Shown here one piece after another: positions 2,630 to 41,173 of a stretch of DNA of 64,000 bases (positions are counted from its first letter, which is position 1; each line of letters begins with the position of its first letter). The position numbers and the translations under genes are program-made. Origin of the DNA: Methanomassiliicoccales archaeon (GTDB taxonomy: Archaea > Thermoplasmatota > Thermoplasmata > Methanomassiliicoccales > UBA472); assembly GCA_036677555.1 (NCBI GenBank), contig JAVBWG010000008.1, forward strand, positions 77,673 to 141,672, in the 5' to 3' direction. Below the pieces are notes generated by a model. It did not search any database. It had not been told where the DNA came from and was given only the letters and a program-made list of their open reading frames with translations.

Positions 2630-2915
2630 GATTGGCCGGCTTATTGGTCAAATCCCGCTTCTGGGTCTCCTTATCCGTATTTACGATGAATATATTGGAG
2701 GCATGGGCGGTATTTTGTATATTGTATAATAGAATAATAATTTTCCCGGCACATGTTCTTATACATTGCTTTCAATACCCTGAGAACGGCAGGAACATCC
2801 GGCGGGTCCATGTTGATCGGCGTGCCAACAGGGCTAATGTTCCTTGGTGGATGGGAAATGTTAAATAGAACAAGGATTTACTCTCCCGTTCACACGCCGG
2901 CACTTACTTACCAAT

Positions 2916-3049
2916 GGGCCCGTAGCTCAGCTAGGTAGGACCTTCGGAGACGAAGGGTCCCTAGAGAGAGCATCTGGCTTTTAACCAGGTGGTCCGGGGT
3001 TCGAATGGTACGCGGTACTTCCGTGTATGCGGAAATCCCCGCGGGCCCG
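2916..3049 (+). tRNA. tRNA-Lys(UUU) with two non-canonical introns (2937-2966 and 3006-3035)
   Basis: Removing the two 30-nt inserts gives GGGCCCG TA GCTC AGCTAGGTA GAGC A TCTGG CTTTTAA CCAGG TGGTC CGGGG TTCGAAT CCCCG CGGGCCC G, a complete cloverleaf. Both junctions fold as BHB-type motifs. Confidence 0.92.
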
Positions 3050-3104
3050 CTTGGGTAGGTGAAAGAAATATGCAGACCGAAGTATCCAAACCCGATTCCC
3101 GAAT

Positions 3105-3118
3105 CGTTTTTATAAAGC
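3105..3118 (+). promoter_or_regulatory. Probable TATA promoter of the RNA polymerase operon
   Basis: CGTTTTTATAAAGC about 55 nt upstream of rpoH; SD-like GAGGTGA at 3159-3165. Confidence 0.55.
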
Positions 3119-3170
3119 CAATACTTAGTGGAGGAACACCCCGGTTTCTGCATGGTATGAGGTGATTCGT

Positions 3171-3437
3171 TTGGAGGATTCCGTACCATTTAACGTATTA
3201 AAGCACAAGATGGTGCCAGTACACGAGCTTTTGACCGATGAGGAGACCGACAAGGTCCTCAAGCGGCTCAAGATAACCCGCGACCAGCTGCCCAAGATAA
3301 AGGACAGCGACGCGGCGATCAGGACGCTCAAGGCGGCCATGAACAGGGACATACCTGAGAAGAGCGTCGTCAGGATCATCAGGGACAGCCAGACGTCCGA
3401 GACGGCGGAAGTCTACCGCCTCGTCATAAGAGGGTGA
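3171..3437 (+). CDS. rpoH: DNA-directed RNA polymerase subunit H (Rpo5)
   Basis: [15 protein letters not shown]...QLPKIKDSD...[10 protein letters not shown]...VYRLVI. TTG 3171 chosen because GAGGTGA lies 5 nt upstream; the track start is 3162. Confidence 0.95.
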
Positions 3438-6400
3438 ACTTATTGAGGGACCTCGTCGAACTCTACTTTAAAGAGAGCAGCATAGTCAACCATCACATAG
3501 CCAGCTTCAATGACTTCCTGTCTTCCCAGAGCAATCCCAACAGCCGGATGCAGAAGATAGTCGATAACGTGAGGGTGTCCGCCGAGGACCCCGAGCGGGG
3601 AATGATCACGCTGGACCCGGAGAAGACCAACGGCCGCATCATCCAGATCCGCGTCGGCCGCAGGCGTGACGAAAAGACCGGCCAGGTCGACCATCACCTG
3701 CCGCCGACCCTGAAGATCGGCGAGCCCATGGTGCGCGAGGCCAACGGTTACGTTCACAACATCACCCCCATGGAGGCCAGGCTCAGGAACCTGAACTATG
3801 TGGCCCCCATGCATCTGGATTTCACCATCATCGAGGACGGCATCGAAAGGGAGGAGAAGGACGTTCTGATCGGCGACCTCCCCATCATGGTCAAGTCCCG
3901 CAAGTGCAACATATACAAGGAGAACATGGAGAAGGAGTACGACCTGACCGACGAGCAGTACAACTCCGAGCTCATGAAGAAGAGCGAGGACCCCATGGAC
4001 GCCGGCGGCTACTTCATCATCGGCGGGACCGAGAGGGTGCTCATAACCCTGGAGGACCTTGCGCCTAACCGCGTCATGGTCGAGCTCAGCGAGAGGTACG
4101 GCACCGCCATGGAGGTGGCCAAGGTCTTCTCGCAGAAGGAAGGCCACCGCGCTCTCACGCTCGTGGAGAAGAAGCGCGACGGCATGCTCATGGTCACCGT
4201 TCCCGCGGCCTCCGGACAGATCCCGCTGGTCGCTCTGATGAAGGCGCTGGGGATGGAGGACGATGAGCAGATCTACGAGGCCATCGTCTCCGCCCCGGAG
4301 ATGGCCAACATCGTTTACGCCAACTTGGAGGAGATACAGGACGCCAAGCTCTATGGGCCGAACGGGATCTTCACCACCGATCATGCTTTGACGTACCTGG
4401 AGAAGAAGTTCGCCACCGGCCAGGCCAAGGAGTACCGGGTGAAGAAGGTCGAGTCCATCATCGACCGCTCCCTGCTGCCCCACCTGGGCGACGTCAAGGA
4501 GGACCGCATGAAGAAGGCCATCTTCCTGGGGAGGATAGCCAGGTCCGTTCTCGAGCTTTCACTGGGCAAGCGCAAGGAGGACGACAAGGACCACTACGCC
4601 AACAAGCGCCTGAAGCTCTCCGGCGACCTCATGGAGGACCTGTTCCGGGTGGCCTTCACCAACCTGGTCAAGGACCTGAAGTACCAGCTCGAACGATCCT
4701 ATGCCAGGAAGAAGGATTTGCGCATCGCCAGCGCCATAAGGCCGGACCTCATGTCCCACCGCCTGCTGCATGCGCTGGCCACGGGTAACTGGGTGGGCGG
4801 GCGCGCCGGCGTCAGCCAGCTGCTGGACCGCACGTCCAACATGAGCACCATCTCCCACCTGAGAAGGGTCACTTCTTCCCTTACCAGGAGCCAGCCTCAC
4901 TTCGAGGCGCGTGACCTGCACCCGACCCAGTGGGGCCGGCTGTGCCCCAACGAAACGCCGGAAGGTCAGAACTGCGGCCTGGTCAAGAACGCCGCCCTGA
5001 TCATCAACGTCTCAGAGGGCTTCCGTGAGGAGGACGTCACCTTTTTGCTCAAGGACCTGGGCATTCATGAGGTCAAGGGCCAGCAGATGGCTGGCACCCG
5101 CGTCTACGTCAACGGGGACCTGAAGGGTGTGCACGACCACGCCCTCGACCTGGTCAACCAGATGAGGAACCGCCGCCGCACCGGGCTCCTGTCCGACGAG
5201 ATAAACATCCGCTACGACGAGGAGATGGACGAGGTCATCATCAACTGCGACGAGGGACGGTTGCGCAGGGCGCTGCTGGTCCTGAAGGACGGCCGCCTGA
5301 TGATCACCCGCAAGCACCTGGAGGACATCCGTGCCGGCAAGCTGCGCTGGTCCGACCTGGTGCGCGAGGGCGTCCTGGAATGGATAGATGCCGAGGAGGA
5401 GGAGGACACCTTCATCTCCGTAGAGCCGTACGAAGTGCCCCTCAAATGCGGCAACTGCGACCGCGACATCTCACCGCTGGACATGGACTGGATGAACCCA
5501 GGCACCGCCGAGAAGCAGGCCGAGCTGAAGTGCCGGCACTGCGGCGGGACCACCAAGGTTGATTACCTGTTCGACAAGGCGCACACCCACATGGAGGTGG
5601 ACCCCATGGTCATCCTCGGCGTGTGCGCAGGGATGGTTCCCTACCCGGAGCACAACTCCTCCCCCCGTGTCACCATGGGAGCGGGTATGGCCAAGCAGTC
5701 CCTGGGACTGGCGTCCAGCAACTACCGCAAGCGGCCGGACACCCGCGGGCACATCCTGCACTATCCGCAGAAGCCCATGGTCCAGACCAAGTTCATGGAC
5801 TTCGTGGCCTTCAACCAGCGCCCGGCCGGGCAGAACTTCGTTGTTGCCGTTCTATCATACCACGGCTACAACATGGAAGATGCGCTCATACTCAACCAGA
5901 GCAGTGTGCAGCGCGGTCTTGGCCGATCGACCTTCATGAGAACGTACCGTACGGAGGAGCGCCGCTACCCCGGAGGACAGGAGGACCACTTCGAGATCCC
6001 TTCCCCGGACGTGCGCGGCGCCAGGACCGACTCCGCCTACAACAACCTGTCCGAGGAGGATGGACTCATCTCTCCGGAGACCCCGGTCTCCGGCGGCCAC
6101 GTCCTGGTCGGCAAGACCTCCCCGCCCCGTTTCGTGGAGGAGGAGGAAGCCAATTTCCTTTCAGGCCACAAGAGGCGTGAGACCTCCATAACCGTGCGCG
6201 CTGGAGAGACCGGCTGGGTGGACAGCGTCATGCTCACCGAGTCGGAGAACGGCTCCCGCCTGGTGAAGGTCAAGGTGCGTGACGAGAGGATACCGGAGCT
6301 GGGGGACAAGTTCGCCTCCAGGCACGGGCAGAAGGGAGTGGTCGGACTGCTGGTGCCGTCCTCGGACATGCCCTTTACCGCCGACGGGGTCATCCCTGAC

Positions 6401-7038
6401 CTGGTGATCAACCCCCACGCCATACCCTCCCGTATGACCGTTGCCCACGTTCTGGAGATGATCGGCGGCAAGGTCGGCTCCCTGGAGGGAAGGCATGTGG
6501 ACGGAACCGCCTTCAGCGGGGAGCGCGAGGATGCGCTCCGCCAATCCCTGGTCGACGCCGGCTTCCAGAAGACCGGCCGTGAGGTGATGTACGATGGACT
6601 TACCGGTCGCATGATCCAGGCCGACGTGTTCATCGGCGTGATCTACTATCAGAAGCTGCACCACATGGTGTCCGGCAAGATGCACGTCCGGTCCCGCGGA
6701 CCGGTGCAGATACTCACCCGCCAGCCTACCGAAGGCCGATCCCGCCAGGGCGGTCTGAGGTTCGGTGAGATGGAGAGGGACTGCCTGATCGGCCACGGCG
6801 CCGCGATGGTCATCAAGGACCGCCTGCTGGACGAGTCGGACGGAACGTTCCAATGGGTGTGCGGAAACCCCAACTGCGGGCACATCGCGATCCTGGACAA
6901 AAGGGGTTCCCTGCGCTGCCCGGTGTGCGGCAACAACACCAACGTGCACATGATCCAGACGTCCTACGCCTTCAAGCTGCTCCTTGATGAGCTGCTCTCG
7001 CTTGGGGTCGCCATGCGCTTACAACTGGAGGATTTGAG

Positions 7039-7042
<4 letters not shown>
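3434..7042 (+). CDS. rpoB: DNA-directed RNA polymerase subunit B (Rpo2, unsplit)
   Basis: [63 protein letters not shown] and a C-terminal zinc ribbon. Confidence 0.99.
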
Positions 7043-41093: not shown

Positions 41094-41167
41094 GCCCGGG
41101 TGGGGTAGTTTGGATATCCTAAGAGGCTGCGGACCTCTAGACCCGGATTCGAATTCCGGCCCGGGCG
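41094..41167 (+). tRNA. tRNA-Arg(GCG)
   Basis: GCCCGGG/CCCGGGC acceptor stem, anticodon arm AGAGG CTGCGGA CCTCT, T-arm CCGGA TTCGAAT TCCGG. Confidence 0.95.
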
Positions 41168-41173
41168 CTCTTC

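Follow-up and report, generated by a model that had tools for sequence, protein, structure and literature searches.

In the 64,000-nt stretch of a Methanomassiliicoccales archaeon genome analysed here in full (the window; NCBI GenBank assembly GCA_036677555.1, contig JAVBWG010000008.1, positions 77,673 to 141,672 of the forward strand), we identified a tRNA-Lys(UUU) gene that is interrupted by two introns, one in the D-loop between tRNA positions 20 and 21 (20/21) and one in the T-loop (59/60), with none in the anticodon loop. The gene occupies window positions 2916–3049 on the plus strand, is 134 nt long as encoded and consists of three exons and two introns. In all probability it is a functional, single-copy tRNA-Lys(UUU) gene whose two bulge-helix-bulge (BHB) introns would be removed by the splicing endonuclease EndA and whose exons would be joined by RtcB. 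The reading is carried by the geometry of the sequence, by the product obtained on splicing in silico, by the uniqueness of the gene in its genome, by its conservation and covariation among relatives and by the presence of the genes for both enzymes. An earlier note on this DNA had proposed the two-intron architecture; its coordinates for exons, introns, helices and bulges are all correct on direct reading of the sequence, and the architecture itself is borne out by the sequence, by the tRNA finder ARAGORN and by our scoring of the BHB motifs.

Both introns contain the elements that define a BHB motif, namely a 4-bp central helix, two opposite 3-nt bulges and cuts that restore a tRNA. In intron 1, CTAG (2931–2934) pairs with CTAG (2961–2964) to form the central helix, which is flanked by the bulges GTA (2935–2937) and AGA (2965–2967). 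The hairpin of this intron (2938–2960) begins right after the 5′ bulge and was scored with seven contiguous pairs, or with 9 bp and one bulged G when read by eye. The central helix of intron 2 is formed by TTCG (3000–3003) and CGGA (3030–3033), includes one G-U pair and is contiguous with the exon-side helix, the T stem; its bulges are AAT (3004–3006) and AAT (3034–3036), and its hairpin pairs 3008–3015 with 3021–3028. The anticodon TTT (2980–2982) lies within exon 2 in a 7-nt loop, the discriminator G is found at 3049, and CCA is not encoded in the gene. We could refine the earlier description, which stands in all its coordinates, at two places. Bases 2929–2930 are unpaired between the D stem (2925–2928 and 2968–2971) and the central helix of intron 1, so that the 3′ cut site of this intron lies in a 3x2 internal loop and not in a clean bulge, and a G-G mismatch (3007/3029) is located between the 5′ bulge and the hairpin of intron 2. 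Both are mildly relaxed BHB introns with a 3-4-3 core.

Excision of 2937–2966 and 3006–3035 by script yields a 74-nt sequence, which ARAGORN calls as tRNA-Lys(ttt) at [1,74]. The product forms a clean cloverleaf with a 7-bp acceptor stem and with D, anticodon and T arms, as seen both by ARAGORN and by direct reading of the stems (the default circular mode of the program also returned spurious wrap-around matches on the spliced sequence). The unspliced 134-nt gene was called neither by ARAGORN nor by the Rfam tRNA model, in the window or in the whole genome, as the earlier note had anticipated when it stated that standard finders could miss it. An essential tRNA is hence hidden from both programs in the source genome.

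The source genome (1.98 Mb in 13 contigs, rated 99.93% complete) contains this tRNA-Lys(UUU) gene only once. A second copy, for which the earlier note had suggested to look, was not found with ARAGORN, Rfam and our pattern scripts, and the copy in the window is the sole gene. ARAGORN and Rfam combined gave no genes for Lys(UUU), Cys(GCA), Thr(CGU) and Arg(UCU) genome-wide. After the pattern scripts had resolved the miscalled genes, every expected anticodon apart from that of Lys(UUU) was accounted for. AAA codons are rare but in use, with 3 AAA vs 61 AAG codons in rpoB and 0 vs 9 in rpoH.

We used rpoB as a handle to fetch 80 syntenic loci (designated by L numbers), the nearest RpoB relatives being from Methanomassiliicoccales and other Thermoplasmata (L044 with 92% identity, and L001, L054 and L057 with 82%). 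Full-length tRNA-Lys(UUU) genes were obtained from 67 of these loci, which together with the window gave 68 genes, all upstream of rpoH-rpoB. An uninterrupted ortholog served as the alignment reference for each gene, and the insertions were scored by a BHB heuristic of our own. Thirteen of the 80 loci were without a full gene in the main screen: nine offered too little upstream sequence (L015, L020, L033, L043, L050, L068, L073, L075 and L079), two returned no match in 3000 nt upstream (L007 and L065), and two contain uninterrupted 74-nt genes that were seen in a separate screen only and stand outside the count of 68 (L058 and L067). Our first pattern screens produced many chance acceptor pairings, and only matches with tRNA-like spacing were kept. 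With a strict anticodon-arm pattern, 32 of the 81 sequences (the window and 80 loci) went undetected; most of these have an anticodon intron, or a stem with a G-U pair or a mismatch.

This survey of the locus upstream of rpoH, which the earlier note had also proposed, revealed at least one intron in 52 of the 68 orthologs and two or three introns in 47. The form seen in the window, with a D-loop and a T-loop intron, is found in 32 genes; 11 genes carry D-loop, anticodon and T-loop introns, four have D-loop and anticodon introns only (L017, L019, L026 and L053), two have a D-loop intron only, three a T-loop intron only, and 16 have no intron. The D-loop insertion is thus present in 49 genes and the T-loop insertion in 46, at constant positions, and we can exclude chance because dozens of independent assemblies share both insertions at identical positions. 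Genes with three introns, in the D-loop, at the canonical anticodon position 37/38 and in the T-loop, are 164–226 nt long (five are located in Table 1; the others are in L011, L013, L014, L016, L023 and L040). Fifteen of the 16 uninterrupted orthologs are 74 nt long and one is 73 nt long; the spliced product of the window gene also has 74 nt. The earlier note had regarded multiple non-canonical introns as uncommon in Thermoplasmatota. For the Lys(UUU) gene this does not hold, since they are the rule there (47/68 with multiple introns), and the rarity that the note implied is upheld only in part, because 52 of 68 orthologs are interrupted and two more tRNA genes with D-loop introns exist in the same genome. 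ARAGORN and Rfam may also miss the orthologs with at least one intron (52/68), and tRNA inventories that are based on these programs could list Lys(UUU) as missing in such genomes.

The splice motifs are conserved together with the insertions. D-loop introns (n = 49) are 24–51 nt long, and their central helix is fully paired (4/4) in 43 cases, compared with a mean of 25.8 and a maximum of 33 when the partner strands were shuffled (1000 shuffles). Both strands of this helix vary (CTAG/CTAG, CCAG/CTGG, GTAG/CTAC, CCCG/CGGG, TCCG/CGGG and GTCG/CGAT). In 47/49 D-loop introns an offset of 2 nt separates the exon-side helix from the central helix, and the intron-side helix is contiguous in 47/49. 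T-loop introns (n = 46) are 20–41 nt long and have a fully paired central helix in 45 cases, with a contiguous T stem in 36/46 and a contiguous intron-side helix in 26/46. The anticodon introns (n = 15; 19–67 nt) are located at 37/38, with 4/4 pairs in 11 and a contiguous exon-side helix in 15/15. Exons hardly vary among the eight closest genes, and changes in the stems are compensatory; the intron interiors diverge, with their hairpins kept.

These patterns bear on whether the locus could be a decaying pseudogene, with AAA decoded by a different tRNA or by one whose gene is absent from the assembly. Such decay would be in line with the failure of ARAGORN and Rfam to call the gene, with the rarity of AAA in the counted genes (rpoB, 3 vs 61 AAG) and with the lack of spliced RNA in the RNA-library contigs described below. 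We nevertheless consider a pseudogene highly improbable: the 99.93%-complete genome holds no other Lys(UUU) gene, the exons remain nearly invariant, with compensatory changes, across RpoB differences of up to ∼40%, and the splice helix covaries, a retention in 49 lineages that would be unexpected of a pseudogene.

We analyzed the history of the introns on a FastTree phylogeny of RpoB (66 rows, midpoint root), on which the direction of change is an interpretation. L002 and L078 were left out of the tree, as their longest frame is <1000 aa, and the placement of L009, L016, L030 and L038, which sit on very long branches, was ignored (probably the wrong long frame was taken). Intron states cluster on this tree, requiring 12 changes vs 31.5 with shuffled labels (0/200 shuffles as low). 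The form with D-loop and T-loop introns is found in three major Thermoplasmata clades, and the anticodon intron is limited to sub-clades. Three intron-less genes (L022, L063 and L074; two labeled Methanomethylophilaceae, one Methanomassiliicoccaceae) nest within the clade of the window that has both introns, a placement that reads as loss of the two. The distribution suggests that the D-loop and T-loop pair is old, and that it was elsewhere lost, or joined by a canonical anticodon intron. One orthologous gene with zero to three introns at three fixed sites provides a compact system for studying gain and loss of archaeal tRNA introns.

Of 22 sequencing runs considered, 14 are RNA runs that contain part of the stretch. 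We aligned Logan contigs from four of them (X1, X2, X3 and X5, from three studies) to positions 2750–3300. The contigs of all four RNA-library runs are colinear with the unspliced locus from ∼2800–2876 (starts at 2799–2876, with no coverage upstream) through 3300. All that they show is that these libraries contain the unspliced sequence, whether it stems from precursor or from DNA carry-over. The same contigs would be expected if the insertions stayed in place as enlarged D- and T-loops of a long but functional tRNA. We find this very hard to reconcile with the gene itself, since the insertions pair with 2931–2934 and 3000–3003, which in our reading include G18 and T54–G57, bases that form the tRNA elbow. 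In addition, the insertions have a 3-4-3 BHB geometry with cuts that restore a standard tRNA, and uninterrupted relatives reveal that the mature sequence is the conserved part.

Two contigs from X1 and X2 (3455 and 1169 nt), which belong to other organisms, match the window only at 2967–3006 with 4 differences, and continue outside this segment as the flanks of an intron-less tRNA-Lys. The similarity therefore ends at, or at most 1 nt from, the predicted borders of exon 2, and both versions of the gene, with and without introns, occur side by side in these digester communities.

The genome encodes a single EndA (347 aa from ATG; L081:733–1776 on contig C8, outside the window) and one RtcB. EndA has two PF01974 and two PF02778 matches, which correspond to two tandem endonuclease repeats. 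It aligns nearly end to end with EndA from Archaeoglobus fulgidus, and its best solved relatives are the fused enzyme from Methanopyrus kandleri and the α′2 EndA from A. fulgidus. It is predicted from its sequence to be of the α′2 type. A Tyr, a His and a Lys in the C-terminal repeat, which we take to be the catalytic triad, align with their counterparts in Methanocaldococcus jannaschii and A. fulgidus and are conserved in 21 Thermoplasmata EndAs. We also considered the N-terminal repeat as a second catalytic unit, as Tyr, His and Lys occupy matching positions in the copy from the window genome, and rejected this idea because the His varies among relatives. When the catalytic repeat is aligned alone, an 11-residue gap opens opposite the insertion in the Aeropyrum pernix α subunit, presumably the Crenarchaea-specific loop (CSL), and the same region aligns gap-free to the loop-less M. 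jannaschii EndA. The ARMAN-2 and Nanoarchaeum equitans chains are ∼10 and ∼6 residues longer, respectively, over the aligned range. Broad-specificity EndAs carry an inserted loop (L1/CSL, L2/ASL or L3) in the catalytic unit; by alignment, no A. pernix-type insertion was detected in that of our EndA.

We next compared EndA across lineages, using 20 further genomes (21 sequences aligned). Among these 21 EndAs, the catalytic repeat has no loop that would set the intron-bearing lineages apart. A segment of ∼20 residues in the N-terminal repeat is undeleted in 8/8 sampled genomes with a D-loop intron, where it mostly reads P-R-G-G-x-P-x-x-T-x-x-K-x-W (the window genome, labeled WIN, and L044 have variants). 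L049 (T-loop intron only) and L063 (no intron) also carry the segment. In the remaining 11 sampled genomes, of which 0/11 have a D-loop intron, the segment has diverged or is shortened; L027 and L028, with shortened segments, retain only a strict T-loop intron. As few genomes were sampled and the pattern tracks phylogeny, we offer only as a hypothesis that tolerance for such introns may depend on the undeleted segment of the N-terminal, structural repeat.

Several points weigh against the interpretation that this EndA removes both introns from the transcript. The strict hBHBh′ form is found in neither intron of the window gene: in intron 1 two nucleotides facing the 3′ bulge are unpaired, and intron 2 has a 1x1 mismatch beside the 5′ bulge. 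In a few genes our heuristic settled on an unlikely register, with 3/4 pairs in 6/49 D-loop cases and a GGGG helix in 2/46 T-loop cases, which makes the counts slightly conservative. The spliced joint was not found in the four RNA runs, whose contigs cannot show a short mature tRNA and so do not speak to whether splicing takes place. A strict motif is stated to be required by α4 and α2 enzymes (Fujishima 2011, PMC3239211). According to a second paper (Kaneta 2018, PMC5829648), only the (αβ)2 and ε2 types of EndA cleave non-canonical introns, loop-bearing EndAs accompany disrupted tRNA genes, with L1 (CSL) conserved throughout TACK and Asgard, and removal of the relaxed 20b/21 D-loop intron of M. 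kandleri by the α′2 EndA from A. fulgidus was inefficient.

It is conceivable, if unlikely, that the introns are removed but that the α′2 EndA is insufficient by itself, and that a cofactor, a modification or an alternative fold of the precursor provides a strict substrate. The D-loop motif is non-strict in 47/49 homologs, the poor in vitro activity of the A. fulgidus enzyme concerned a D-loop intron of the HBh′ form (PMC5829648), and our EndA has the gap opposite the A. pernix α insertion, all in agreement with such a requirement. Against it, the genome encodes a single EndA homolog, the deviation from the strict motif is mild with both bulges present, and the D-loop intron of tRNA-Thr(CGU) in the same genome can be fully strict, so that the enzyme works at that position. 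In a splice-and-refold test, a fold that fully agrees with the strict hBHBh′ motif is available to this 22-nt intron, and the D-loop intron of tRNA-Leu(CAA) is offset by 1 nt on its exon side.

We favor direct processing by EndA and RtcB. A precursor of ∼134 nt plus leader and trailer would contain the two 30-nt introns, each of which would form a bulge-helix-bulge together with the adjoining exon bases, in which loop bases of the mature tRNA pair with the 3′ end of the intron in a 4-bp helix flanked by two 3-nt bulges. The α′2-type EndA would cut after the second base of each bulge (2936/2937, 2966/2967, 3005/3006 and 3035/3036), and RtcB would ligate the three exons into the 74-nt tRNA, to which CCA would be added later. 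Cleavage, ligation and the sequence of these events are inferred, as is what becomes of the introns, which may be released as circles.

The positions of the features described are collected in Table 1. The conserved downstream neighbor of the gene, named as rpoH in the earlier note, was confirmed by its Pfam match. Between the two genes, five T (3107–3111) are followed by a TATA-like word ∼45 nt before the rpoH start; this segment (3107–3117) may combine the terminator of the tRNA gene with the promoter of rpoH, although the RNA-library contigs pass through it. Elsewhere in the window, ARAGORN calls a tRNA-Arg(GCG) at 41094–41168, which scores 54.2 bits in the whole-genome Rfam run and is missing from the Rfam gathering-threshold scan of the window, so that the two Rfam runs disagree. 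In intron mode on the whole genome, ARAGORN produced about a dozen spurious genes with 400–2900-nt introns. In this mode the program labels Arg(UCU) as Ala, Cys(GCA) as tRNA-???, Thr(CGU) as Met with an 1842-nt intron, and a tRNA with a CAT anticodon (C12:470206–470309, minus strand) as Ser. A tRNA-Trp(CCA) gene (C12:450852–451023, minus strand) contains an intron of ∼99 nt with words resembling C and D boxes. In other Euryarchaeota, the intron of tRNA-Trp harbors a box C/D guide RNA, which this intron resembles.

Table 1. Location of the interrupted tRNA-Lys(UUU) gene, its parts and neighbors in the window, further intron-containing tRNA genes of the same genome (contigs C5 and C12, outside the window) and orthologs with three introns
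Feature	Position	Strand	Content and evidence
tRNA-Lys(UUU) gene, 134 nt	2916..3049	+	Sequence; spliced form called by ARAGORN; orthologs
Exon 1	2916..2936	+	Acceptor 5′ strand, D-stem 5′ strand (2925–2928), D-loop to position 20
Intron 1, 30 nt, D-loop (20/21)	2937..2966	+	Central helix covaries in homologs
Exon 2	2967..3005	+	Position 21, D-stem 3′ strand (2968–2971), anticodon arm (2973–2989), variable loop, T-stem 5′ strand (2995–2999), T-loop to position 59 (six T-loop bases)
Intron 2, 30 nt, T-loop (59/60)	3006..3035	+	Sequence; homolog scoring
Exon 3	3036..3049	+	T-loop position 60 (last T-loop base), T-stem 3′ strand (3037–3041), acceptor 3′ strand (3042–3048), discriminator (3049)
rpoH (RNA polymerase subunit H/Rpb5)	3162..3437	+	Open reading frame (ORF); Pfam PF01191, 3.4e-25
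rpoB	3434..7042	+	ORF; 80 relatives, 57–92% identity
tRNA-Thr(CGU), D-loop intron ∼22 nt	C5:86463-86556	-	Pattern scripts
tRNA-Arg(UCU), canonical intron	C12:452314-452411	-	Pattern scripts
tRNA-Cys(GCA), 15-nt canonical intron	C12:50896-50981	-	Pattern scripts
tRNA-Leu(CAA), D-loop intron ∼22 nt	C12:227933-228039	-	Pattern scripts
Ortholog with three introns	L009:2538-2701		
Ortholog with three introns	L012:2540-2714		
Ortholog with three introns	L018:2492-2681		
Ortholog with three introns	L021:2126-2312		
Ortholog with three introns	L025:2418-2586		

Introns of the BHB type at 20/21 and 59/60 are already established, as are tRNA genes that carry two or three introns, the known cases coming from Crenarchaeota, M. 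kandleri, ARMAN-2 and a red alga. The mechanism that we propose for Lys(UUU) is the standard one. Our literature search brought up no publication on introns in tRNA genes of Methanomassiliicoccales or Thermoplasmata; supplementary tables (Kaneta 2018, 46 species), GtRNAdb and tRNAscan-SE lay outside its reach. The gene may have been annotated before, and tRNAscan-SE may well find it. As far as we searched, the combination of D-loop and T-loop introns and its deep conservation in Thermoplasmata are new, as is the concentration of introns in one essential gene with zero to three of them at fixed sites. The same applies to their pairing with a predicted α′2 EndA that lacks an A. pernix-type loop. 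The lineage looks like an exception to the published rules for EndA, albeit a mild one since both bulges exist. Our tentative and rather speculative generalization is that much of Thermoplasmata, with its α′2 EndA and no known specificity loop, has kept mildly relaxed non-canonical introns in an essential, single-copy tRNA, in three major clades and with up to three introns per gene. If true, this would represent a natural exception to the rule that only loop-bearing (αβ)2 or ε2 enzymes support such genes. The lineage also offers natural enzyme-substrate pairs for probing the specificity of EndA.

Sugahara et al. reportedly described, in 2008, multiple-intron tRNA genes in Thermoproteales and other Crenarchaeota. 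The crenarchaeal genes resemble ours in having two or three BHB introns per gene at non-canonical sites that include the D- and T-loops. Crenarchaeal tRNA introns are numerous and often recent, whereas in our case a single gene has retained two fixed sites throughout deep clades of Thermoplasmata. The crenarchaeal EndA further differs in being an (αβ)2 enzyme with the L1 (CSL) loop (PMC5829648). A nuclear tRNA gene from a red alga has its introns distributed over three arms like L009, L012, L018 and L021; it is processed by a eukaryotic endonuclease and is unrelated by descent to the Thermoplasmata gene. The tRNA-Pyl of Candidatus Methanohalarchaeum thermophilum HMET1 contains one or two BHB introns and is euryarchaeal like our gene, but represents a different tRNA and lineage (PMC9071458).

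The same T-loop junction (59/60) is used in ARMAN-2 by pre-tRNA-Cys(GCA) (59/60) and pre-tRNA-Pro(GGG) (53/54 and 59/60). In that report, the 59/60 introns are short, of the hBH or strict form and removed as BHB motifs, as we propose here; the ARMAN-2 EndA is a three-unit ε2 enzyme with an extra loop and broad specificity, in contrast to our α′2 candidate without an A. pernix-type insertion (PMC3239211). The closest counterpart for the D-loop is pre-tRNA-Glu(UUC) from M. kandleri (20b/21 and a canonical intron), which is also euryarchaeal, has more than one intron and is interrupted in the D-loop at nearly the same junction. As in our gene, this D-loop intron is relaxed (described as HBh′ in M. 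kandleri) and is found together with an EndA that has no specific loop. According to PMC5829648, the M. kandleri EndA is an (αβ)2 heterotetramer, unlike the predicted single-chain α′2 enzyme of our genome, and the D-loop intron is the only relaxed intron described for the M. kandleri genome. In our lineage, the D-loop intron recurs in 49 of 68 orthologs and, in the window gene, is paired with a T-loop intron.

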